Shown in pieces: positions 48,710 to 58,664 of a stretch of 64,000 nt of DNA. Position 1 is the first letter of the stretch. Each line of letters opens with the position of its first letter. Origin of the DNA: Candidatus Marinacidobacterium sp. (GTDB lineage: Bacteria > Acidobacteriota > Vicinamibacteria > Marinacidobacterales > Marinacidobacteraceae); assembly GCA_965204755.1 (NCBI GenBank), contig OZ242011.1, positions 3,744,001 through 3,808,000 of the forward strand, given 5' to 3'. A model generated the notes under the pieces. The model did no database searches. It was not told the origin of the DNA and saw only the letters and a program-made list of their open reading frames with translations. Both the position numbers and the translations under genes were made by a program.

Positions 48710-50221
48710 GTGGATCCCGCCGCCGCTCCTTCCGGCGGCGCGTTCGCGCCGCAACTCGCCGGCGGCGCCGGCAAGTTCCGGATCGAGACCTGGGGCTGCC
48801 AGATGAATGTCCACGACTCCGAGAAGATGGCCGCCGGGCTCGGTTCGCTCGGCCTCGCTCCCGGAGGAGACGGGGAGTCCGAAGTCGTCGTGCTGAACAC
48901 CTGCTCGGTGCGGGAAAAGGCGCAGGAGAAGGTGTTCACCCGGGTCGAGCAACTGGCGCGGGCCGGCCGGCGACCGACCTTCATCGGGGTGGCCGGATGC
49001 GTCGCCCAGCAGGAGGGTGAGGCCATCTTCGCCCGCGCGCCGGCGGTGGACTTCGTCCTCGGGACGCAGAGCCTGGTCCGCCTTCCCCAAGTCGTGCGCC
49101 GGCTGCGCGAGGGGGAGACCCGGATCGTGGAGACCGGGCGGGATCCCGGCAACCTGGACATTCCGCCGGAGCAGATCTCGCGGATTCCGGGGGTGAAGGC
49201 CTACATCACGATCATGGAGGGCTGCGACAACTTCTGCTCCTTCTGCGTGGTGCCCTTCACGCGGGGCCGGGAAAGGCGCCGGAGCGTCGCCGCCATCGTC
49301 CGGGAGGCCGAGTCCCTCGTCGAATCCGGCTTTTCGGAGATCCAGTTGCTCGGCCAGAATGTGAACTCCTATCGGGATCCGGACGACGGGCGGGGGTTCT
49401 CCGCCCTCCTCGGCGAAGTGAGCCGGGTCGAAGGAATCCGGCGCATCCGCTTCACCAGCCCGCACCCGAAGGACTTCGACCGGGAGTTGATGCTGCGGTT
49501 CGCCGAAGGCGGGCCGCTCATGCCCTCGATGCACCTGCCGGCGCAGTCGGGTTCGTCGAGCGTCCTCGCCCGCATGAGGCGGGGATACACCCGGGAAGAG
49601 TTCCTCGACCTGGTTCGCGAAGCCCGCGAAATCGCCCCCGGGATCGAGTTCTCGACGGACTTGATCGTCGGGTTCTGCGGCGAGACCCGCGCCGAATTCG
49701 AGGAGACGATGACGCTGCTCGACGAGGTGCGTTTTTCTTCGGCGTACTCGTTCCTGTATTCGGAGCGTCCGCACACCCTGGCGTCCAAACGGCTTCGCGA
49801 CGATGTGCCGCGCGAGGTGAAGACCGCCCGGCTCATGGAGTTGCAGGCGCGTCAACGGGAAATCCAGATCGAGCGGCACCGGGAGATCGTGGGCCGGGAG
49901 GTCGAAGTGCTGGTCGAAGGGCCGAGCCGCAAGGGGAACGGGCTCTCCGGGCGGGCGCCGGACAATCGGGTGGTGAATTTCCCGGTTCCCGAATCGGACG
50001 ACGCCGGGTTCGCCGACTGGGTGGGCGCCTTCTGCACGGTGCGGATCACCGGCTACGGCCCGAACAGTTTGGTCGGCGCCCTGGTGCGCGCCGCCGGCCG
50101 GCCGCGGCCGCTGCCGGACTTCACCGAATCCGCTGCGGGCGGAGCCGAGGCCGACCGGCTGCTTCCCCTGCCGGTGGTCCAGCCCGCCCGCCCGAGCGCG
50201 GCTTCCACCCACCTTTCCTGA
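48710..50221 (+). CDS. miaB: tRNA methylthiotransferase MiaB
   Basis: Motifs TWGCQMNVHDSE, NTCSVREKA, GCDNFCSFCVVP, C-terminal TRAM domain; GAGGGG RBS before GTG 48710. Confidence 0.95.
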   Translation: MDPAAAPSGGAFAPQLAGGAGKFRIETWGCQMNVHDSEKMAAGLGSLGLAPGGDGESEVVVLNTCSVREKAQEKVFTRVEQLARAGRRPTFIGVAGCVAQQEGEAIFARAPAVDFVLGTQSLVRLPQVVRRLREGETRIVETGRDPGNLDIPPEQISRIPGVKAYITIMEGCDNFCSFCVVPFTRGRERRRSVAAIVREAESLVESGFSEIQLLGQNVNSYRDPDDGRGFSALLGEVSRVEGIRRIRFTSPHPKDFDRELMLRFAEGGPLMPSMHLPAQSGSSSVLARMRRGYTREEFLDLVREAREIAPGIEFSTDLIVGFCGETRAEFEETMTLLDEVRFSSAYSFLYSERPHTLASKRLRDDVPREVKTARLMELQARQREIQIERHREIVGREVEVLVEGPSRKGNGLSGRAPDNRVVNFPVPESDDAGFADWVGAFCTVRITGYGPNSLVGALVRAAGRPRPLPDFTESAAGGAEADRLLPLPVVQPARPSAASTHLS

Positions 50222-50234
50222 GAGCGGGCGGGGC

Positions 50235-50780
50235 GTGGCGGCGGAACGGACGGCCGAACGGCGCCCGCGGGTCGAGAAGGACTCGGCCCGCGAGATCGAG
50301 ATGACCATCAAGGCCATCCTCATGGTGCCGAAGACCAGCGCCGCGGTGGTGTTGCTCAAGGAAGAGCCGGGCGAGCGGGAGATCCCGATCTGGGTCGGGG
50401 CGGCGGAAGTGCGGGCCATCGGCCTCCAGGTGGAGAACTACGAGCCGCCGCGCCCGTTCACCCACGACCTGATCCGGGAGTTGCTCCGCGAACTCGATGT
50501 CCGGGTCACCAAGGTGGTCATCCACGATGTGCAGGACAACACCTTCTTCGCGCACATCCACATGGAACAGAAGCGCCAGCGGCTGGCGGTGGACGCCCGG
50601 CCGAGCGACGCGATCGCGGTGGCGCTGCGGACCCGGGCGCCCATCTATGTCCATGCCCGGGTGATGGAGCAGAGCGCCCGGACCACCGAGGAACTGGTCG
50701 CCGATCCCCCGGACGACACCGAGGCGCTCGGCGACTGGCTCGAGGGGCTGGACGAGGACGATCTCGGGGATCCCCACTGA
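50235..50780 (+). CDS. Bifunctional nuclease family protein (DUF151)
   Basis: Motifs IPIWVG, PRPFTHDL, DARPSDAIAVALR. Start may be ATG 50301. Confidence 0.9.
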   Translation: MAAERTAERRPRVEKDSAREIEMTIKAILMVPKTSAAVVLLKEEPGEREIPIWVGAAEVRAIGLQVENYEPPRPFTHDLIRELLRELDVRVTKVVIHDVQDNTFFAHIHMEQKRQRLAVDARPSDAIAVALRTRAPIYVHARVMEQSARTTEELVADPPDDTEALGDWLEGLDEDDLGDPH

Positions 50781-50801
50781 CGGCCGTCCGCCGAATCCCG
50801 C

Positions 50802-51578
50802 GTGGCCGTAACCATCACCGTCGCGAACCAGAAGGGCGGCGTCGCGAAGACCACGACCTCGGTGAACCTGGCGGCGGCCCTCGCGGCGGCCGGACGCGCC
50901 ACCCTGCTGGTGGACGCCGACCCCCAAGCCAACGCCTCGGTCACTTTCCTCGGGCCGGACCTCGAAGGGCCGACGATGTTCGAGGCGTTGACCGACGAAG
51001 CGAAGTTCCGCGACATCATCCGCGAGACGCCGGTGGAGGGCCTGTCCGTCGCCCCGTCCCGCATCTCGCTCGCCCGGCTGGAGCGCCAACTTCTCGGCGA
51101 CCTGGACGCGCACTACCGGCTGCGTGACCGCATCCAGACCACGCGGGGAGAATTCGACTTCGTGGTCGTGGATACGCCCCCGACGCTGGGCATGACCACC
51201 GTGAACGCGATGGTGGCGAGCGACTGGCTGCTCCTGCCGCTGCCCCCGGCCTACTACGCGCTCGAAGGCGCCGACGACCTGCTCGACACCCTCGAGCAGA
51301 TCCGCCGCCGCCCGAACCCGGACCTGGCGCTCCTCGGGGTGCTGATCACCATGGTGGACGGACGGACGCGGATCGCCCGGGATGCCGCTCGCCGGATCCG
51401 CGGCCATTTCGGCAAGGCGGTGTTCCGAACCCAGATCCGCCGCAATGTGCGCCTCGAAGAGAGCCCGGCCTACCGCGAGGACATCTTCGCCTTCGCCCCC
51501 TCGTCCGTCGGCGCCAAGGACTACCGGCGGTTGTCCCGCGAGGTGCTCGCCCGTGTCCAGGCGAACCGGTCTTCCTGA
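50802..51578 (+). CDS. parA: ParA/Soj family ATPase
   Basis: Motifs NQKGGVAKTT, VDADPQAN, DTPP, IRRNVRLEESP. Confidence 0.92.
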   Translation: MAVTITVANQKGGVAKTTTSVNLAAALAAAGRATLLVDADPQANASVTFLGPDLEGPTMFEALTDEAKFRDIIRETPVEGLSVAPSRISLARLERQLLGDLDAHYRLRDRIQTTRGEFDFVVVDTPPTLGMTTVNAMVASDWLLLPLPPAYYALEGADDLLDTLEQIRRRPNPDLALLGVLITMVDGRTRIARDAARRIRGHFGKAVFRTQIRRNVRLEESPAYREDIFAFAPSSVGAKDYRRLSREVLARVQANRSS

Positions 51579-52566
51579 CGCCGTGCGGCTCAAGCCGCGC
51601 GCCGGCCACTATGTGGAAGCCCTCGTCCCGGAGGAGCCGACTGCCGCGTGGCGAATGATTCCGGTCGCGCAGATCCACCCCAACCCGAACCAGCCCCGGC
51701 AGCGGATCGGCCGGCTGGACGCCCTGGTCACTTCCATCCGGGAGCACGGCGTCCTGCAGCCGATCCTGGTGCGGCGGCTGGGCGCCAAGGACTACCAGAT
51801 CATCGCCGGGGAGCGCCGCTTCCAGGCGGCCCGCCAGGCCGGGCTGCGCGAAGTGGCGTGCGTGGAGCGCGAGGCCGGGGAAGGGGAGTCGCTCGAACTC
51901 GCGCTCGTCGAGAATGTCCTGCGGGACGACCTCACGCCGTTCGAGGAGGCTTCCGCCTACGAGTGGCTCATCGAACAGCACGGCCACACCCACGAATCGT
52001 TGGCCCGGCGGGTCGGGAAGCCGCGGACCTCGGTTACCGAGTCCCTGGCGCTCCTGAACATCCCGGAGGGCATCCGCGAGATGTGCGCGGCGGCCGGTCT
52101 CCGGTCCCGTCGGCAACTGCTCCGGATCGCGCGACAGCCGGACGAGGCGGCGATGGCGGCGGCGGTCGAGCGCCTCGCCCGCGGCCTCGAGGCGGAGGAC
52201 GCGGCGGCGTCTTCCGGCCCCGCCGGCGCGACCGCGGAGAAAAAGCAGGAAAAGCCGACTCGACCGAAGCCGTTCGTCTTCCGCTTCGCCCCCCGGGGCG
52301 CGCCCTTCCGGCTGCAGATGACCTTCCGCAGGAGTCGGGTGGACGAGGGCGAGGTCCTCGAGGCGCTCCGCGATTTGGTGCGCCGGTTGGAGGAGTCCTC
52401 CGCCGGCGGCAGTGAGCCCGAGGGGGCGGAGGGAGCCGGGGAGCCCCGGGCGCCGGCTGCCGCGCCCGACGCCGCCGAACCGGGCGCGAACACCTCCCGA
52501 GCCGGGCGGGTCGCCGCTCCGATCCCTACCGCTCCGCCGGCGGTTCCCGAAGGCTCGAAACGCTAG
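51553..52566 (+). CDS. parB: ParB/Spo0J family partition protein
   Basis: Motifs PNPNQPR, GVLQPILVR, IIAGERRFQAA, ALVENVLRDDL, HTH. Confidence 0.9.
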   Translation: MSRRTGLPDAVRLKPRAGHYVEALVPEEPTAAWRMIPVAQIHPNPNQPRQRIGRLDALVTSIREHGVLQPILVRRLGAKDYQIIAGERRFQAARQAGLREVACVEREAGEGESLELALVENVLRDDLTPFEEASAYEWLIEQHGHTHESLARRVGKPRTSVTESLALLNIPEGIREMCAAAGLRSRRQLLRIARQPDEAAMAAAVERLARGLEAEDAAASSGPAGATAEKKQEKPTRPKPFVFRFAPRGAPFRLQMTFRRSRVDEGEVLEALRDLVRRLEESSAGGSEPEGAEGAGEPRAPAAAPDAAEPGANTSRAGRVAAPIPTAPPAVPEGSKR

Positions 52567-52577
52567 GATCGCCGCCC

Positions 52578-53204
52578 ATGCGGACGCTGTTCTCCTCCCG
52601 CGGCCGAGGCCGCCTTCCGTTCTCGCGCCCATGGGTCGCCGCCGTCGCCGCGGTCGGTCTCGCCGCGTTCGTCTTCCCGGCGAACCCGGAGGCCGCTGTC
52701 GAAGGGCAGGCGGAGACCACCGGGACGATCGCGGTCGGCGAGCCGGCGCCCGACTTCGAGTTGCGGGACGCCGAGGGCGAGTCCTACCGGCTCTCCGAGT
52801 TGACCGCGAAGGGCCCGGTGGTGCTCGAATTCTTCCGGAGCGGCGGTTGGTGACCGTTCTGCAAGGCGCAACTCGGCGAGTTGCAAGAGGAACTGGCGCG
52901 ATTCGAGGCGGCGAACGCCACCGTCCTCGGCATCTCGAAGTACGACGCGGCGGAGACCGGGCGCTGGCTCGCCGAGAACGACTGGACCTTCCCGCTCCTC
53001 GTGGACGGCGGCCCGGTGATTCGCGACTACGGCATCCCGAACCCGGACCACGACGGCACGGAGCGGGAGGGGATCCCGCACCCGGCGACGATCATCGTCG
53101 GTGGGGACGGGATCGTGCGCTTCGTGAATGTGTGGGTGAACTACCGCGAACGCACCACGCCGGACGAGATCCTCGACCGGATCGCCGACCTCCCGTCCCG
53201 ATGA
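52578..53204 (+). CDS. Exported AhpC/TSA peroxiredoxin-like selenoprotein (UxxC; Sec at UGA 52851-52853)
   Basis: ORFs 52578..52853 and 52881..53204 are in the same frame. Read-through gives APDFEL...FFRSGGW-U-PFCKAQLGELQ...PATIIV, one intact redoxin fold, with a SECIS-like hairpin downstream. Confidence 0.85.
52854..52896 (+). promoter_or_regulatory. Bacterial SECIS-like element
   Basis: Upper stem GCAACTC (52868-74)/GAGTTGC (52878-84), loop GGC beginning 21 nt after UGA; lower pairing CC-GTTC/GAAC-T-GG. Confidence 0.7.
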
Positions 53205-53773
53205 CCGCCCGCCGCGCCATTCCGCCGCCGGCGCGCGCCTTCCGGTCGGCGCTTCTCTTGGCCGGCCTCTCGGCTTTCGGCGCCGGAACGGCGGCGGGAC
53301 AGATGTTCGAGATCCCGGACTGGGAGAACTCCGCCGAGTTCCGGCTCGTCGCCTCCCAGTCCCCGGTTCGTCCCGGGGATGCCTTCGAGTTGGCGGTCGT
53401 CGCCCGGCTCGACCCCGGTTACCACCTCTACGGCCCGGAGGAGGCGCCGCCCACCGCGACCGTCGTCGAATGGACCGGCGGCCCGGCGCTGGAAGCCGGC
53501 GCGCCGCTCTACCCGGAGCCGATCCGCCGGGACCTCTCCGGACTCGGGGAATACGACCTCTACGAGGGCACGGTCGCGTTCCGGATCCCGGTGACCTCCG
53601 CCGCGCCGGAAGCGGGCTCGACCGCCGCGGAAGTGCTGCTCCGCTACCAACTGTGCACCGACAACGCCTGCAGCGCGCCGACCAGCACGACCCTGACGCT
53701 GGACCTGCCGCTCGCGGGGAAGGGGACGGAAGTGCGGAGCCTCCATCCAGAAGTGTTCGGAGACTCTCCGTGA
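53201..53773 (+). CDS. Stand-alone DsbD N-terminal (alpha/Ig-like) domain protein
   Basis: Signal peptide; motifs LDPGYHLY, YEG, YQLCTDNACSAP (CxxxxC); ATGA-coupled to the upstream gene. Confidence 0.8.
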   Translation: MTARRAIPPPARAFRSALLLAGLSAFGAGTAAGQMFEIPDWENSAEFRLVASQSPVRPGDAFELAVVARLDPGYHLYGPEEAPPTATVVEWTGGPALEAGAPLYPEPIRRDLSGLGEYDLYEGTVAFRIPVTSAAPEAGSTAAEVLLRYQLCTDNACSAPTSTTLTLDLPLAGKGTEVRSLHPEVFGDSP

Positions 53774-54294
53774 CCGCGGGCGCTCCGGAATCGGGATCCC
53801 CGAGTCCCGAGCCGCGGGTGGTCCACACCTGCCGCGCCCGGATCGTGAAGCGGGCCGGCCCGGAACGCCAGGCCTTCCTGGAGGGATTTCCCGACCCGGT
53901 CCGCTTCGGCGTCCACACCGGGATCGCCGCGTTCTACGGGGTCACGCCGTCTGAAGAACTCCCGGCGACGCTCGACTATGTGGTGGCCGCCACCGGCGGT
54001 TGAATGGTCGGGACTTTCGGGCGGGCGCTCGAAGCACGCGGGATACCCAGCCAGCCGGATCGGCTGACGGCCGAGGTCGAAGGCGACATCGTGGACGAGG
54101 GCGGGGTGATGGCGCTCCGCCGGATCCGCATTCGCTACCTCCTCCGACTCGACCCGGCGCAGCGCGAAGCGGCGGACCGGGCGCTCGAGTTCCACGAACG
54201 GGGCTGTCCGCTCGCGAACACGCTGCGCGGCGCGGTCGCGGTGGAATACGCCGCGGAGTATCGAGACACGGAAGACCCTGCCGGCTCCGCATGA
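53770..54294 (+). CDS. OsmC/Ohr-like selenoprotein (Sec at UGA 54001-54003)
   Basis: GTG overlaps the previous stop. Read-through gives TLDYVVAATGG-U-MVGTFGRALEARG...HERGCPLANTL, with UGA where the first OsmC Cys is expected and the second Cys retained. SECIS-like hairpin follows. Confidence 0.82.
54015..54034 (+). promoter_or_regulatory. Bacterial SECIS-like element
   Basis: Stem TTCGGGC (54016-22)/GCTCGAA (54027-33) with one G-U pair; loop GGGC begins 19 nt after UGA. Confidence 0.65.
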
Positions 54295-54349
54295 GCCGGC
54301 GCCCCGTTCGCCGCCCGGCGCCGGCGTTCCGGGCGGCGCCCGCCGGTTC

Positions 54350-54856
54350 GTGACGGACGCCGGCGACGGGCTGCGGGCGCTGATGCGCGCCGCCCCGCAA
54401 CTCGTGACGGTGGTGACCGCGTGGGGCGCGGACGGCCCCCGCGGGATCACCGTGAGTTCCTTCATCTCCGTCAGTCTGGCCCCGGCGACCGTGCTCGTCT
54501 CCATCATGAAGTCCGCCCGGGCCCACGCGGCGATCGCGGCGGGAAGGTTTCGGGTGCACCTGCTCGCCGAGGACCAGGCCGCGGTCTCCGCGCACTTCGC
54601 CCGCCCCGGACTCGGCGCCGACGAGCAGTTCGGCGGCGCTTTCCGGGGGGCGCTGGACGGACGGCGGAAAGGGGAGCCGCCCCGGTTGCCGGATTGCCTC
54701 GGCTGGGCCGAGTGCGAGACGGTCTCGGCGGTGGACGGCGAAGACCACACGCTGTTCCTCGGCCGCGTTCGCGAAGTCTCGGTGGAGCGTGGGGAGGCGC
54801 CGCCGCTGCTCTATGTCTCGCGCAGCTATCGGCGGGTGGGGGAGGCCCTGGCGTGA
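54350..54856 (+). CDS. Flavin reductase family protein (HpaC/RutF-like)
   Basis: Motifs VTVVT, GITVSSFISVSL, EDHTLFLGRV, PLLY. Confidence 0.9.
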   Translation: MTDAGDGLRALMRAAPQLVTVVTAWGADGPRGITVSSFISVSLAPATVLVSIMKSARAHAAIAAGRFRVHLLAEDQAAVSAHFARPGLGADEQFGGAFRGALDGRRKGEPPRLPDCLGWAECETVSAVDGEDHTLFLGRVREVSVERGEAPPLLYVSRSYRRVGEALA

Positions 54857-55764
54857 AACGGCCGCGGAGGGGGCGCCTCTCGGGGCGGACGCCGGCGTCC
54901 CCGGCGGCGCCGCTCGTCCTGGCCCTCCTCGCCGCGGGCTGTGGCGGGGGCGAGGAACCGGAGGCGCCTTCCCGGGTGGAAGAGCCGGCGGCGCCCGTCG
55001 AGACCCCGCGCGAGCCGTCGCCTCCGCCGCCGCCCGAGCCCGCTCCGGCGCCGCCGGCGACCGGGACGCTCGAGGTGGTCGGTACCGAGGGGGCTTCGGT
55101 GTTCCTCGACGGCGAGCCCGTCGGAACGGTGCCCGGCGTGTTCGCCGACCTGCCGGCGGGAGAACATCAGGTGCGGGTCGAGCGGGCGGACTTCCATCCG
55201 CTCGAGGTGGCGGTGACCATTCGGGGCGGCCGCAGCCGCACCCTCGACGCCCGGCTGGTCGAGAGGCTCGGCTCCATCGCGGTGGAGAGCGAGCCGGCGG
55301 GCGCGATGGTCTTCCTGAACCGGGACTTCAAGGGGAACACGCCGGTGGTCATCGAGGACCTGCGGCCGGACACCTACGCGCTGATGCTTTCCGTCGAGGG
55401 CTTCGATGTCCACAACGAAAGAGTGGAAGTCGGGAGGGCCCGGGTTCCGGTGCGCGTCGCGTTCGAGGCTTCGGCGGCGACCTTGGATGCGGCGGTCGAG
55501 GTGGTGCACAAGCACCGGTTCGGCTCCTGCGCCGGGACGCTGGTGGCGACGGAGTCGGGGTTCGACTACCGGACGGAGCACCGCGATGCGTTCGAGTTGC
55601 CGTTCGCCCGGGTCGAACGGTTCGAGTTGGACTATGTGGAGAACAACCTGCGGCTGAAAGTGCGCGGCGGACGCACCTACAACTTCGAGGCCCCGAACGG
55701 AGAGGTGGACCCGCTGTTCGTGTTCCACCGTGATGTCCAGGCGTTCCGGGAAGCGGGGAACTGA
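54853..55764 (+). CDS. PEGA-domain lipoprotein
   Basis: Lipobox LAAGC, Pro-rich linker, two PEGA repeats (GASVFLDG..GTVP; SEPAGAMVFLN..GNTP). Confidence 0.8.
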   Translation: MKRPRRGRLSGRTPASPAAPLVLALLAAGCGGGEEPEAPSRVEEPAAPVETPREPSPPPPPEPAPAPPATGTLEVVGTEGASVFLDGEPVGTVPGVFADLPAGEHQVRVERADFHPLEVAVTIRGGRSRTLDARLVERLGSIAVESEPAGAMVFLNRDFKGNTPVVIEDLRPDTYALMLSVEGFDVHNERVEVGRARVPVRVAFEASAATLDAAVEVVHKHRFGSCAGTLVATESGFDYRTEHRDAFELPFARVERFELDYVENNLRLKVRGGRTYNFEAPNGEVDPLFVFHRDVQAFREAGN

Positions 55765-55797
55765 CCACGCGGAGTCGTACATTCGCCTGCTTCTATT

Positions 55798-55825
55798 TCT
55801 TAACATAACATCTCTTATCGGAAGT
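55798..55825 (-). other. XerC/XerD dif recombination site
   Basis: Minus strand ACTTCCGATAA-GAGATG-TTATGTTAAGA, 11-6-11 layout. The XerD arm matches the E. coli TTATGTTAAAT core; the XerC arm begins like B. subtilis ACTTCC. Confidence 0.85.
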
Positions 55826-55868
55826 TGCCGGGTGCGCACTCCGCGCGCCCGGCATCATCCGATAAGAG
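55812..55868. repeat. Inverted repeat with a 26-bp stem that incorporates the XerC arm of dif
   Basis: 55812-55837 pairs with 55843-55868 (2 mismatches, 1 G-T); loop ACTCC. Confidence 0.8.
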
Positions 55869-56162
55869 CGCTCCGTTCTCCGAAGCGGCAAGGGCCTCGG
55901 CGCCGAAAGCCCGGTGTCGCGACGCTCCTCGGGGCCGCTTCCGATAGCGGACCGTCCAGCACCGGGCGCCGAATCTGTGTGGAGCGCGCCCCCGCATCGT
56001 CGGAGCGAGAGCGTTCCGTTATCCGATGCGACGGTCTCGGGACCGGATATTGATCGAGCCACTTGGTAGGCGACGATTGTTCCGGCGATCACCCTTATCA
56101 TCTGTCCCCGAAAATCTCGGCCGAGCCTCGGGTCACGGGCGTGGTTCTCTTCCGGTTCCACG

Positions 56163-58664
56163 ATGTCCTTCCGCAGTTTCCTGAAACGCCTGAGCGGCCC
56201 GCTCCGCGCTGTTCCCGTGCGCTTGATGGGCCGCCTGGTCCGCGTCTTCCGACGGGCTGACGGTTCGAGCGGGCCTGCATCTGGGTGTGGAGAGACGGGA
56301 CAGCCGGAGTTGAACGAATCAACGCCGGACAAGCGGTCAACCGGTTCGGAGCCCGCGGGCACTGCTTCCCCGGACATCGAAGACCGAGATGGACCGACGC
56401 CGGGGCGAAATGACGGCAGTTCGCATGCGCCGGCACCCCTGCCCCAAAAGCCGGGGTCGCCCAACGGCGAAGGGCGCGCCGCCGAACCCGAGCCGGAGGC
56501 GGAAGGGACGATGGACATCACACCGCCGGTTGACGAGAGCCATGCCGATGCGGCAACCGGAGGTGCCCTCCCGGACACGCCGACTCGCGAACCCGACGAC
56601 CGTGCTGATCCCGCGTCTGCGGAGCCAAGACCACCGACGGTGTCTCCGCCGCGAGTGACGACCGAGGGGTCGAGGAGAGCGGGAGAACCTTGGAGGTTCG
56701 GACCGCGTCGCACGCAACATGACTCTGCCCTCGGAATCCGAAGTGACGCGGGCGCTTCTCCACCCGAACTCAGGATTCGCTACGCCGGCGGCAGGTGGGA
56801 AGTACTGCTCTCGGTTGACCCGAAAGCAGGCCCGTCCGAAGTGCTGCAAGGTGGGAATCCGCTTCGTCCTGCTCGGGATGGGGCTTGGCGCGTGCCCGAT
56901 TTCCGGCGAGACATCGAGGTAAGAACCGACAACGCTGGCGACGCAACGATACCCCTCTACACAGGAAGAGAGCCGCTTATCTTCCGGCTACCGGGGGCCG
57001 ATGGCGAGGGAACTCAGCGTCGTCGAATGACCGATCGTGGACGGTATGTCGTAATCGCGCCGGCAGGAGAACTCCGCCGCGACGAGATCGCGGTCTTTCG
57101 GGAGCACGAACCCTGTGGCGATCATCGTTTTGTCGCACATTTCTTCGACTCGTCTGCCGGGAGGGGGGCGGAAACGGTCGAGGGTTTCCCGGAGTGGGAC
57201 TACGGCGCTACAACGGGAAGTGCCTCCTTGGCCGGGCGCTCTATTTTCGACAGTTCCGAAGACGGAAAGTTGTTCGTTGGAGACGCGCCGACTTTGGATT
57301 CGACGGACGGAATCAAATGGGCTCGCATCGGTGAAGAGCGAGAGGGTGGGTGGAAGGGACGGAACTTTCTCGTCGCAGAAGAGAAGCCAGGCGATGTCCT
57401 GAACGGGGCATGTGGGAGATTCTTTCTCCGCACATATCGAACGGGGGAGACGCATCTGGCCGACTCGCGATCGTTTCGCTATTGGCCTGACCTGGAGAGG
57501 ATCGAACTCAACGGGAGAAAATTCGACTCGGAGCGCATCCTGATTCCGGGCACAGCGGGGCATGGGAAGGCGACCGTTCGGTTGGTCGGCCGAGTCGGTA
57601 GCGATCTGAAATTCGAACTCATGAACACCCAAGGGGCATCAGTCTCCACCGACGGGACGATTGCGGTTGCTCCGGACATCACGGCAGACGAGTTGCGCGT
57701 GCGCCTTTGCCGCGCTCCGTGGCACATGGATTTGGTCGTCGCCCTGCCGAGGGTCTGGTGGCGGCTGCAAGGAGATCGGAGCAACTGGAAATCTACTCCG
57801 CTCTCCATGTCTCGTCGAGAGTTCCGGAGCATCGCAACTCAGCGGCTTGAGATGCTCGTGCCGGAGTCCATCCCATCCGTCGAAGCCACACTTGGAAGCC
57901 AAATCGGCGAGTTCCCTGCGACGAGAACTGACGAGTCCGTTCACAAACGACTCTGCGCCATTCCTCTTGAGTACTTCGCGGATCACTCTGCCCTTCAAGA
58001 CGCCGGCGCACGGGAAGACGCTACGATCCGCGCCCGACTAAACGGATCGGAGGTGTGCATCATACATGTGCCCCCTGAACGGCCGCGACGAGCACTCAAA
58101 CCCCAATCGTCGCCCGTCCCCGCTCCGCCACACGAGATGCCGGCGACGCCGAGCCGGACGGAGCACACGGTTCTCAAGAACAGCGTGGTCGCCGTAGGTT
58201 GCGTGAGGGTTCGGGAACGCGACAAGAACATCTCCTTCACGGCTATGGCGATCGTCAGCGACGGGAACGGCCGCGTCGGCGTCGGTCATGGAACGGGGCG
58301 CGATGTACCGGCCGCGACCAAGAAGGGAATCGAGATCGCGACGAAGAATCTGGTGTCGGTGCGGCGGCAGGGACGTACTATCGCCCATGAGGTCGTTGGC
58401 GCCTTCGGTGGCGTTCGTGTCCTGATGAGTCCCGCTCCGGAGGGAACGGGGATCGTCGCGCGTAGATCGACGCGGGCAGCGGTGCGGGCCGTCATCGAAC
58501 TGGCGGGGATCAAGGACATCCTGATCCGATCGAGCGGGACTTCGAACCAGGAAAAGGCCGTCGCGGCGGTCGTCGAGGGCTTGCGTTCGCTCCGCTCGCC
58601 AGAAGTCGTAGCCGAATCTTCCGAAAGGGAGACCGGAGAGAGTCTCCCTGAGACGAGGAGGTAG
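56163..58664 (+). CDS. Uncharacterised protein with a C-terminal ribosomal protein uS5-like domain
   Basis: Disordered N-terminus, beta-rich middle region, and residues ~671-818 resembling uS5 (SFTAMAIVSDGNGRVGVGHG..RDVPAA..K, PAPEGTGIVA, VRAVIELAGIKDI). Confidence 0.8.
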   Translation: MSFRSFLKRLSGPLRAVPVRLMGRLVRVFRRADGSSGPASGCGETGQPELNESTPDKRSTGSEPAGTASPDIEDRDGPTPGRNDGSSHAPAPLPQKPGSPNGEGRAAEPEPEAEGTMDITPPVDESHADAATGGALPDTPTREPDDRADPASAEPRPPTVSPPRVTTEGSRRAGEPWRFGPRRTQHDSALGIRSDAGASPPELRIRYAGGRWEVLLSVDPKAGPSEVLQGGNPLRPARDGAWRVPDFRRDIEVRTDNAGDATIPLYTGREPLIFRLPGADGEGTQRRRMTDRGRYVVIAPAGELRRDEIAVFREHEPCGDHRFVAHFFDSSAGRGAETVEGFPEWDYGATTGSASLAGRSIFDSSEDGKLFVGDAPTLDSTDGIKWARIGEEREGGWKGRNFLVAEEKPGDVLNGACGRFFLRTYRTGETHLADSRSFRYWPDLERIELNGRKFDSERILIPGTAGHGKATVRLVGRVGSDLKFELMNTQGASVSTDGTIAVAPDITADELRVRLCRAPWHMDLVVALPRVWWRLQGDRSNWKSTPLSMSRREFRSIATQRLEMLVPESIPSVEATLGSQIGEFPATRTDESVHKRLCAIPLEYFADHSALQDAGAREDATIRARLNGSEVCIIHVPPERPRRALKPQSSPVPAPPHEMPATPSRTEHTVLKNSVVAVGCVRVRERDKNISFTAMAIVSDGNGRVGVGHGTGRDVPAATKKGIEIATKNLVSVRRQGRTIAHEVVGAFGGVRVLMSPAPEGTGIVARRSTRAAVRAVIELAGIKDILIRSSGTSNQEKAVAAVVEGLRSLRSPEVVAESSERETGESLPETRR

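Follow-up and report, generated by a model that had tools for sequence, protein, structure and literature searches.

A 2026 review (PMC13188914) names, in its section on operons, the selenoprotein operons grdA-grdB, prdB-prdC, frhA-frhD-hdrA, a peroxiredoxin (Prx) gene with a SelW-like gene, a Prx-like gene with an AhpD-like gene, SAO and Tso. Like the locus described here, they bring two selenoprotein genes into one operon, presumably under a common redox theme; a Prx-like and OsmC-like pair around a DsbD_N gene is absent from that list. The two kinds of selenoprotein are each established, as an earlier, sequence-only reading of this DNA had stated, both classes having been published since 2005, the year in which the Prx-like UxxC selenoproteins were described (Zhang, Fomenko & Gladyshev, PMC1088965). 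The same reading did not know their combination as a described module, which fits the literature searched and the operon section of the review. The closest parallel for the envelope part of the locus comes from Caulobacter, where the periplasmic alpha domain of the DsbD-family protein ScsB holds exported Prx and Prx-like proteins reduced, by the routes ScsB to TlpA to PprX and ScsB to PrxL (Cho et al., 2012, PMC3322552). We favour, with moderate confidence, the view that our locus is a predicted co-transcribed block behind parAB in which two selenoprotein genes serve two separate redox jobs, one in the envelope and one in the cytoplasm.

The window, the whole stretch of 64,000 nucleotides analysed here, comes from an order of marine, largely sponge-associated Acidobacteriota, judging by record titles and by the sponge and marine metagenome runs that contain it, among which there is no RNA run. 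All genes of the locus lie on the forward strand. The open reading frame of parA (50802-51578) is followed by that of parB, which encodes ParB_N and HTH_ParB domains and ends at 52566, its stop 11 nt ahead of the first gene of the block, g1 (52578-53204). This gene is predicted to encode a 208-aa selenoprotein, Prx-like (AhpC/TSA fold) and exported, with the motif W-U92-P-F-C95. Its TGA stop (53202-53204) overlaps the ATG (53201-53203) of g2 (53201-53773) as ATGA, and g2 encodes a 190-aa DsbD-alpha-like protein, free-standing and putatively exported, with C152-x4-C157. The TGA stop of g2 (53771-53773) overlaps in the same manner (GTGA) the GTG (53770-53772) of g3 (53770-54294), for a predicted cytoplasmic OsmC-fold selenoprotein with U78 and C146; the true start of g3 may be a later GTG, since its orthologues mostly begin four residues before 'VHTC'. 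A gap of 55 nt separates the stop of g3 (54292-54294) from the GTG at 54350 of g4 (54350-54856), which encodes a 168-aa flavin reductase of the HpaC class (PF01613). The translational coupling of g1 to g3 and the spacing to g4 had been recognised at the outset with these same coordinates; g4 in turn overlaps (GTGA, 54853-54856) a fifth coupled gene missing from the earlier list, g5 (54853-55764), for a protein with a PEGA domain and an N-terminus of lipoprotein type (LLAAGC, by eye). A promoter scan of the locus gave 0 sites, the four terminator-like sites (2.6 expected) include none in the intergenic positions of the cluster, and none of the seven Rfam matches at E <= 10 over 50000-58000 reaches its gathering score.

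Our analysis confirms, as far as the comparison of genomes can, that g1 and g3 are genuine selenoprotein genes, whose in-frame TGAs (codon 92 of g1, 52851-52853; codon 78 of g3, 54001-54003) are predicted to be read as selenocysteine (Sec, U). The decoding machinery is complete: selA (474.6 bits), selB (286 bits), selD (245.8 bits) and tRNA-Sec (71.8 bits) each score above cut-off in the genome search, and ARAGORN finds a tRNA-SeC with the anticodon tca. Recoding of UGA would be site-specific, because TGA also serves as the stop codon of g1, g2, g3 and g4. Of 41 genomes of the order, 40 have a Prx-like match, with TGA in 39, and 39 have an OsmC match, with TGA in 40 of 40 rows; these tallies, like that for DsbD_N, include one unpublished genome (G033). 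The TGA column is identical in 33 of the 35 extracted g1 rows, the exceptions being one decayed copy and one fragment at the end of a contig, and in all 35 g3 rows, as well as in 20 of 20 phylum loci. Among more distant homologues of g1, 18 of 19 have Cys in place of Sec (the remaining one has Ser); among the full-length homologues of g3 in the database, 13 of 14 do (the remaining one has Trp). The alternative, that the TGAs are sequencing errors, marks of pseudogenes or an altered genetic code, can draw on these two exceptional residues and on hairpins no more stable than shuffled sequence (see below), but it has to contend with the same TGA in some 40 of the order's genomes, with TGA in 51 of 51 OsmC rows from 47 other genomes of our Acidobacteriota sample, with contigs of four studies that cover both TGAs and have no difference listed at either, with a frame kept on both sides of the TGA inside single alignments, and with the ordinary use of TGA as a stop beside a full set of Sec genes. 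We regard this alternative as extremely improbable and, so far as sequence data reach, already refuted. The conserved TGA columns, the Cys homologues and the Sec machinery thus agree with the two selenoprotein genes proposed at the start, and the accompanying remark that standard gene callers split both of them is borne out by the protein database, which holds their orthologues as fragments (95-96-aa C-terminal OsmC pieces and 114-137-aa Prx pieces).

Bacterial SECIS elements are hairpins that lie soon after the UGA and have a G in the apical loop, and g1 and g3 each have a candidate of this form. The g1 hairpin (52868-52884) has a 7-bp stem (52868-52874/52878-52884) and a GGC loop with its onset 21 nt past the UGA; that of g3 (54016-54033) has a 7-bp stem (54016-54022/54027-54033) and a GGGC loop with its onset 19 nt past the UGA. 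This similarity of position and G-initiated loop had been seen in the window's own letters, and about 99% of the stem cells are paired across orthologues: 99.1% of 231 cells for g1, with one covarying pair that has 0 mismatches (GC19/AU12/GU2), and 99.3% of 140 cells for g3, with one covarying pair (UA15/CG5), although covariation support amounts to one pair per helix and the relatedness of the sequences inflates such counts. Stability alone is no evidence, because the folding energies match those of shuffles (z = +0.41, +0.34, -0.19 and -0.28) in a genome of 71.7% G+C; the evidence for these predicted elements is conservation. In the window, the g1 stem uses the rare codons CAA, TTG and CAA, which in the genome make up 14% of Gln codons (CAA) and 6% of Leu codons (TTG). 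The OsmC genes of the sister families have a different hairpin, 7 nt more 3' than that of g3, and it is because the two clades have different hairpins that RNAalifold found no convincing common helix in all 33 OsmC sequences taken together.

The g1 product matches AhpC-TSA (PF00578) at 100.6 bits, above the Pfam cut-off, and its Sec opens a thioredoxin-type UxxC, the two features that define a Prx-like UxxC oxidoreductase selenoprotein; of 35 Prx-like rows, 33 show the motif W-U-P-[FY]-C. The protein stays below every curated NCBIfam cut-off (at best 42.7 bits, against SelL_rel_redox, NF040769, where 120 is required). With the Prx-like UxxC selenoproteins of PMC1088965 it shares the AhpC/TSA scaffold, the replacement of the TxxU/TxxC of true peroxiredoxins by UxxC, a marine metagenomic origin and Cys homologues with CxxC; its lineage differs from those described there in being exported and in overlapping a gene for a free-standing DsbD-alpha. 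A local MAFFT alignment with 14 database T-x-x-C-T proteins, 13 of them named peroxiredoxin by their source, sets U92 against the Thr of TPGCT in the PrxQ/BCP-named proteins and C95 against their peroxidatic Cys. The claim that each UGA falls exactly at a catalytic Cys holds for g3, whose Sec is at the first OsmC Cys, whereas in g1 it falls at the Prx Thr column and the peroxidatic Cys is C95. The TxxC of PrxQ/BCP with its conserved Thr is absent from g1, and because this Thr is missing a peroxidase activity of g1 is doubtful. The genome carries another AhpC/TSA gene with an in-frame TGA, at C1:159232-159681. A hydrophobicity scan, checked by eye, predicts conserved N-terminal signal peptides for the products of g1 and g2 but not for that of g3, in keeping with the split between envelope and cytoplasm proposed earlier.

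The partner of g1 in the envelope would be g2, which matches DsbD_N (PF11412) at 51.4 bits, above the Pfam cut-off, as the only such match in the genome. Its C152 and C157 are invariant in 32 of 32 sequences, and from the Pfam match and this invariance, rather than from alignment to a solved DsbD, we infer that they correspond to the catalytic pair of E. coli DsbD-alpha. With two redox Cys in a 190-aa stand-alone ORF, g2 resembles a DsbD alpha domain and not a full-length DsbD, having no fused beta (membrane) or gamma (thioredoxin-like) domains. The sole DsbD_TM match (C1:2488349-2488990) is 1.3 Mb off and adjoins a cytochrome c gene and a TlpA-like gene. All DsbD-alpha partners known to us are thioredoxin-fold CxxC proteins, and g1 and g2 plausibly form a DsbD-alpha/thioredoxin-fold relay: g1, once exported, would act as a UxxC oxidoreductase of thioredoxin type built on a peroxiredoxin scaffold, C152/C157 of g2 would undergo selenol/thiol-disulfide exchange with U92/C95 of g1, and cytoplasmic reducing power could arrive by way of the one CcdA-type transporter of the genome, whose gene lies elsewhere. 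Electrons might flow from g2 to g1, like those from DsbD-alpha to CcmG, or in the reverse direction. Relative to the Caulobacter system as set out in PMC3322552, where the ScsB alpha domain is fused to membrane and gamma domains, g2 is a separate protein and the transporter a distant CcdA-type gene; the Caulobacter partners are all Cys proteins, whereas g1 uses Sec, and PrxL, which had no detectable peroxidase activity there, belongs to CDD cd02969 and has two distant Cys and no CxxC, unlike the UxxC of g1.

The second job would be cytoplasmic. The g3 product belongs to the OsmC/Ohr proteins by domain (OsmC, PF02566, 48.5 bits, above the Pfam cut-off), by predicted fold (AlphaFold2 mean pLDDT 93; top PDB matches all OsmC/Ohr, with TM <= 0.84) and by its two catalytic Cys positions, the Sec column and C146 aligning by profile with the two Cys of OsmC 1ukk and both columns being invariant in 42 OsmC sequences. 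A weak phmmer match of residues 14-71 to NosL among PDB sequences (E = 0.0027) was rejected as a chance match, because its Cys is Ser in the sister families and the g3 model folds as OsmC. We propose that g3 is an OsmC/Ohr-fold hydroperoxide reductase with Sec78 in place of the first catalytic Cys, and that C146 would resolve its selenenic acid as a selenylsulfide. For the block as a whole, Sec coding, family and fold, conservation and predicted location are what the data show, whereas partners, polarity of electron transfer and substrates are inferred. The published OsmC-like selenoproteins (PF02566; PMC1088965, PMC2398784, PMC13188914), as described in these sources, are like g3 in their OsmC fold, in having Sec at the first catalytic Cys and in existing in both Sec and Cys forms, but they have UxxT with Thr at +3, whereas the g3 family has U-[LM]-x-G-T with Thr at +4. 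Against the NCBIfam model OsmC_like_Se (NF041052, cut-off 95 bits) g3 scores 25.9 bits, and 0 of 10 further family members reach the cut-off (best 26.5 bits), the 11 proteins scanned being 10 Sec forms and one Cys form. OsmC(U) occurs in 47 of 300 sampled Acidobacteriota genomes, and the site in metagenome loci is Cys in 19 and a stop in 23. By its motif and its scores against the NCBI model, the OsmC(U) family looks like a separate, uncurated Sec clade, widespread in Acidobacteriota. This clade, lying below the NCBI curated model, and the more 3' position of the SECIS hairpin in the sister families are what is new here.

One order of Vicinamibacteria ('Ca. Marinacidobacterales') conserves the arrangement parA-parB-Prx(U)-DsbD_N-OsmC(U)-flavin reductase-PEGA lipoprotein, which is confined to it: all 20 loci retrieved from the window's own family keep this arrangement, as do several from two sister families, and of 33 retrieved loci with a Prx-like match and upstream sequence, 32 have parA-parB ahead of the cluster. 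Conserved order of this kind is explicable by descent alone, because the block is restricted to one order and fixed behind parAB, a position in which synteny does not tell descent from selection on function. It is possible, though we think it rather unlikely, that the block is an inherited neighbourhood only, in which unrelated antioxidant and housekeeping genes inherited their place behind parAB from the ancestor of the order and not even g1 and g2 are functionally coupled. In line with this, coordinate comparison across the phylum sample gives no adjacent Prx-like and DsbD_N matches, and the only recurrent neighbours of OsmC(U) in 20 loci of other Acidobacteriota are OsmC halves and overlapping-frame artefacts. 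What argues for a coupling of g1 and g2 is that every one of the 34 retrieved loci with both genes has them side by side, including those with OsmC elsewhere, and that adjacency and overlap have survived roughly 50% protein divergence as well as the rearrangements by which OsmC was moved; in addition, g2 is the genome's single DsbD_N protein, and g1 is a thioredoxin-fold UxxC protein, as would suit a DsbD-alpha partner (see above; also PMC3322552).

Our two-job reading assigns no role in either job to g4 and g5, which are co-located with g1-g3. The g4 product matches Flavin_Reduct (PF01613) at 129.9 bits, above the Pfam cut-off, and its profile matches 22 solved reductases at E <= 1e-10; the best NCBIfam equivalog scores 92.9 bits against a required 200, giving no equivalog-level identity. 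There is no monooxygenase partner next to g4, whose neighbours are the OsmC and PEGA protein genes. HpaC-class reductases are known as suppliers of reduced flavin, not as disulfide reducers, and OsmC/Ohr enzymes are otherwise known to use lipoyl proteins as electron donor. The sequence-only reading had suggested that the four products may form a Se-dependent peroxide/thiol system from envelope to cytoplasm; as one integrated system, all four or five products would work in a single pathway, and the flavin reductase would pass electrons from NAD(P)H to the Sec-OsmC and, across the membrane, to the exported pair. The start/stop overlaps that join g1-g2-g3 and g4-g5 and the gene order kept within the family would suit such a system, as would the joint movement of OsmC and flavin reductase where they stand apart from g1-g2 (loci L058, L061, L063, L065) and a clade-specific Cys of the reductase, C116, six residues ahead of the invariant C122 and present in 21 of 22 sequences. 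On the other hand, OsmC(U) has no partner genes within about 4 kb in any of the 20 loci fetched from other Acidobacteriota, nor beside it in 49 metagenome loci, many of them short; the reductase stays behind g1-g2 in three genomes whose sole OsmC homologue is elsewhere (G026, G028, G040) and in one where an OsmC match was not found (G035); the block holds no membrane electron carrier, the only DsbD_TM being the distant one; and the reductase is of a class not known for the role. The split of locations with signal peptides on g1 and g2 stands, while a single system joining them strikes us as improbable.

The locus is a sound, fairly ordinary addition to what is known: both genes are of known bacterial selenoprotein kinds, and they do not amount to a new class of system. 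We hold it quite improbable that the block is a dedicated Se-based defence unit of this order, in which the sole DsbD-alpha, split from a CcdA-type transporter, specifically recycles the exported UxxC protein and the flavin reductase with its extra Cys is the NAD(P)H-linked reductant of the Sec-OsmC; if true, that reading would give OsmC/Ohr enzymes a new class of electron donor. The findings put right the annotation of two genes which public gene calls break up throughout one order, and they indicate that routine annotation will miss the OsmC-fold Sec clade in the sampled Acidobacteriota that carry it, since it falls below the NCBI curated model. The exported UxxC selenoprotein beside a free DsbD-alpha would offer a simple natural pair for studying Sec in the thiol-disulfide relays of the envelope.

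Our analysis showed that parA and parB are followed by five plus-strand open reading frames, each with a Pfam match above the curated cut-off: g1 (52578-53204), of the AhpC/TSA fold; g2 (53201-53773), with a DsbD_N (DsbD-alpha-like) domain; g3 (53770-54294), an OsmC protein; g4 (54350-54856), with a Flavin_Reduct domain; and g5 (54853-55764), a PEGA-domain protein with a lipoprotein-type N-terminus. The ATGA overlap at 53201, the GTGA overlap at 53770 and the 55-nt gap before g4 are as the sequence-only reading had them, and another GTGA at 54853 couples g4 to g5. The parB stop lies 11 nt from the g1 start (52564-52580); this spacing, together with the position of the cluster after parAB throughout the order 'Ca. 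Marinacidobacterales', suggests that the redox and partition genes may be transcribed jointly. Further along, an 833-aa open reading frame (56163-58664, + strand) matches both ribosomal protein S5 domains in residues 682-819 (the last ~140), with no Pfam match in the ~680 residues upstream; either the frame is mis-extended, the DNA being G+C-rich, or S5 is part of an unusual fusion here.

Both g1 and g3 are open only on readthrough of an in-frame TGA, at codon 92 (52851-52853, + strand) and codon 78 (54001-54003, + strand), respectively. Because g1, g2, g3 and g4 all end in TGA as a normal stop, any recoding must be site-specific. The genome (one contig, 3.98 Mb, 71.7% G+C, 89% complete) carries the selenocysteine (Sec, U) machinery, with selA (474.6 bits), selB (286), selD (245.8) and tRNA-Sec (71.8) all exceeding their cut-offs and a tRNA-SeC with anticodon tca called by ARAGORN. 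Across 41 genomes of the order, including this one and, for all three queries, one unpublished genome (G033), OsmC matches occur in 39, with an in-frame TGA in 40/40 rows (the two genomes lacking a match are 96% and 73% complete); Prx-like matches occur in 40, with TGA in 39, the exception (G030) being a decayed fragment with TAG; and DsbD_N matches occur in 40, without stops. In the 40 loci fetched, the TGA column of g3 is shared by 35/35 OsmC rows (motif G-x-U-[LM]) and that of g1 by 33 of the 35 Prx rows (W-U-P-[FY]-C), the other two being a contig-end fragment and the G030 copy. The whole operon copy of G030 (L072, G030:C2:135400-143000) seems decayed, its Prx-like gene lying in two pieces and its OsmC being reduced to a piece of 75 aa; a different contig carries another OsmC(U), which is more distant.

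More distant full-length database homologues have Cys at the Sec column, as the two-selenoprotein reading predicted, in 18/19 cases for g1 (the remaining one has Ser) and 13/14 for g3 (the remaining one has Trp). The exceptions are P0007 and P0049, one an OsmC homologue and one a Prx-like protein, and the Trp may reflect a gene caller that read TGA as Trp (TGA=Trp code). Contigs from four sequencing studies cover both sites and none of the 40 displayed differences falls on either TGA, with 19 more differences beyond those displayed and one run that is possibly the window's own source. The machinery, the same-column TGA in orthologues, the Cys homologues and the independent assemblies together exclude, as far as sequence data go, that the TGAs stem from sequencing errors, from decay into pseudogenes or from a changed genetic code, and we are highly confident that g1 and g3 are both selenoprotein genes. 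Outside the window, the same genome has a further match to the AhpC/TSA family that contains a single in-frame TGA (C1:159232-159681, minus strand), probably another selenoprotein gene.

The hairpins reported after both TGAs do exist: for g1, a stem at 52868-52874/52878-52884 (+ strand) whose GGC loop starts 21 nt after the UGA, and for g3, a stem at 54016-54022/54027-54033 (+ strand) whose GGGC loop starts 19 nt after it. Neither folds with a better energy than shuffled sequence does (z -0.28 to +0.41), a test that says little because the DNA is so G+C-rich. The g1 helix is paired in 99.1% of 231 cells among 33 Prx sequences, with one covarying pair (G-C 19, A-U 12, G-U 2; no mismatch), and pairing falls to 15-57% once the partner columns are slid. 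In the window, its stem uses rare codons, CAA being 14% of Gln codons and TTG 6% of Leu codons in a crude count across 1372 long ORFs. Within the window's family (20 sequences), 99.3% of the cells of the g3 helix are paired, and one pair alternates between U-A (15) and C-G (5). In contrast, the 13 OsmC sequences of the two sister families (L055-L073; alignment A4, columns 29-45, against window 54016-54033) are unable to form this helix; they have another helix instead, 6 bp long and displaced 7 nt in the 3' direction, with 100% pairing and one pair A-U (5), G-C (5) or G-U (3). This conservation is good evidence for SECIS elements, if not overwhelming, since each helix has a single covarying pair and the counts are inflated by related sequences. 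The shift of the OsmC SECIS hairpin between families is new here.

The functional link with the best support in our comparison is a putative envelope pair of g1 and g2. The two genes are adjacent in 34/34 fetched loci holding both, and the signal peptides proposed for their products agree with orthologues that open with a short charged segment, a hydrophobic segment and a site resembling A-x-A (a heuristic, not SignalP). g1 reaches no curated NCBIfam cut-off, and can be ruled out as a canonical peroxiredoxin: aligned locally with database proteins carrying a TPGCT-type motif, almost all of them annotated at source as peroxiredoxin Q/BCP or thioredoxin-dependent peroxiredoxin, it has U92 at the conserved Thr and C95 at the peroxidatic Cys. 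It is doubtful that g1 acts as a peroxidase. In g2, C152-x4-C157 is invariant (32/32 sequences). It holds the sole DsbD_N domain in the genome, and the sole DsbD_TM gene is a CcdA-like ORF 1.3 Mb away, beside a cytochrome c and a TlpA-like gene. Known DsbD-alpha partners are thioredoxin-fold CxxC proteins. In Caulobacter, a DsbD-family alpha domain maintains an exported peroxiredoxin, and also a peroxiredoxin-like protein, in the reduced state (PMC3322552). On these grounds, g2 may undergo selenol/thiol-disulfide exchange with g1, an exchange that would be fed through the distant CcdA.

g3 is predicted to be cytoplasmic, in line with the earlier proposal: its orthologues start four residues ahead of a conserved VHT[CS], without a hydrophobic stretch (again a heuristic, not SignalP). 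Its model has the OsmC/Ohr fold (AlphaFold2 mean pLDDT 93; top PDB matches all OsmC/Ohr proteins), and in a profile of g3 and Cys homologues the Sec column and C146 align with the two Cys of Thermus OsmC 1ukk, which we take to be the peroxidatic and resolving residues. Most likely, g3 would reduce hydroperoxides via a selenenic acid and then a Sec78-Cys146 selenylsulfide. g4 is an HpaC-class flavin reductase, for which no equivalog-level assignment was reached; its clade-specific C116 (21/22 sequences), six residues ahead of the invariant C122, corresponds to Ala in each of the four solved homologues for which an alignment was printed.

The order parA-parB-Prx(U)-DsbD_N-OsmC(U)-flavin reductase-PEGA is kept in 20/20 fetched loci of the window's family and, with variations, in both sister families; these relatives belong to Acidobacteriota, Vicinamibacteria, 'Candidatus Marinacidobacterales/Marinacidobacterium', and several are sponge or coral MAGs. 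In the sister families, DsbD_N is followed by an inserted single-pass membrane protein of 146 aa that has no Pfam family, ahead of OsmC or the flavin reductase (L055:3329-3766; same position in L056, L057, L059, L066, L068 and L070); in the genome that the window comes from, tblastn found none. Four genomes have OsmC and the reductase relocated 3-60 kb away or onto another contig. In three genomes (G026, G028, G040) the reductase stays behind g1-g2 and the sole OsmC homologue is elsewhere, and G035 has Prx(U), reductase and PEGA with no close DsbD_N and no OsmC match.

Among 300 other Acidobacteriota genomes, 47 have an OsmC homologue, with TGA in 51/51 rows. The stop is in the same column in 20/20 of these loci fetched, none of which has Prx-like, DsbD_N, flavin reductase, parA, parB or PEGA matches within ~4 kb or any other recurrent neighbour. 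Prx-like matches occur in 57 genomes of this sample (54/62 rows with TGA, 8 without; unpublished G064 and G192 included), no DsbD_N is closer than 37% identity (unpublished G192 and G089 included), and coordinate comparison found no adjacency of the two. A Cys-type homologue led to 49 metagenome loci, with Cys at the OsmC site in 19 and a stop in 23, and no partner genes nearby, many contigs being short. In a tree of 42 sequences (unrooted, with several open forks), the operon copies fall among the phylum's Sec forms and the Cys forms make two separate clades. The sequence-only reading had suggested that g1-g4 may form one selenium-dependent envelope-to-cytoplasm peroxide/thiol system. Its predicted locations are supported. 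A role of the flavin reductase in serving g3, or a single system of all the genes, is made less likely by OsmC(U) occurring by itself throughout the phylum and by loci that hold the reductase with OsmC missing. For everything beyond g1-g2, a serious rival is that the block has simply been inherited in its place behind parAB.

g1 and g3 belong to already known selenoprotein classes. Publications have described Prx-like (UxxC) and OsmC-like (UxxT) selenoproteins since 2005, and g1 is of the same class as the former, described from the Sargasso Sea (PMC1088965); both are listed in a 2008 GOS analysis (PMC2398784) and a 2026 review (PMC13188914). The operon section of that review covers grdAB, prdBC, frh/hdr, Prx with SelW-like, Prx-like with AhpD-like, SAO and Tso, and the Prx-like/OsmC-like pairing is absent from it. 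Full-text literature searches found no description of this pairing, and supplementary tables might list such contigs. The fixation of the block behind parAB is new here, as is an OsmC(U) clade that is phylum-wide and uniformly Sec in the sampled genomes. Also new are two features of this clade: unlike the printed UxxT form (PMC1088965), it has Thr at +4, not +3, from Sec, and it escapes the NCBI OsmC_like_Se model, 0/11 scanned proteins reaching the 95-bit cut-off (best 26.5).
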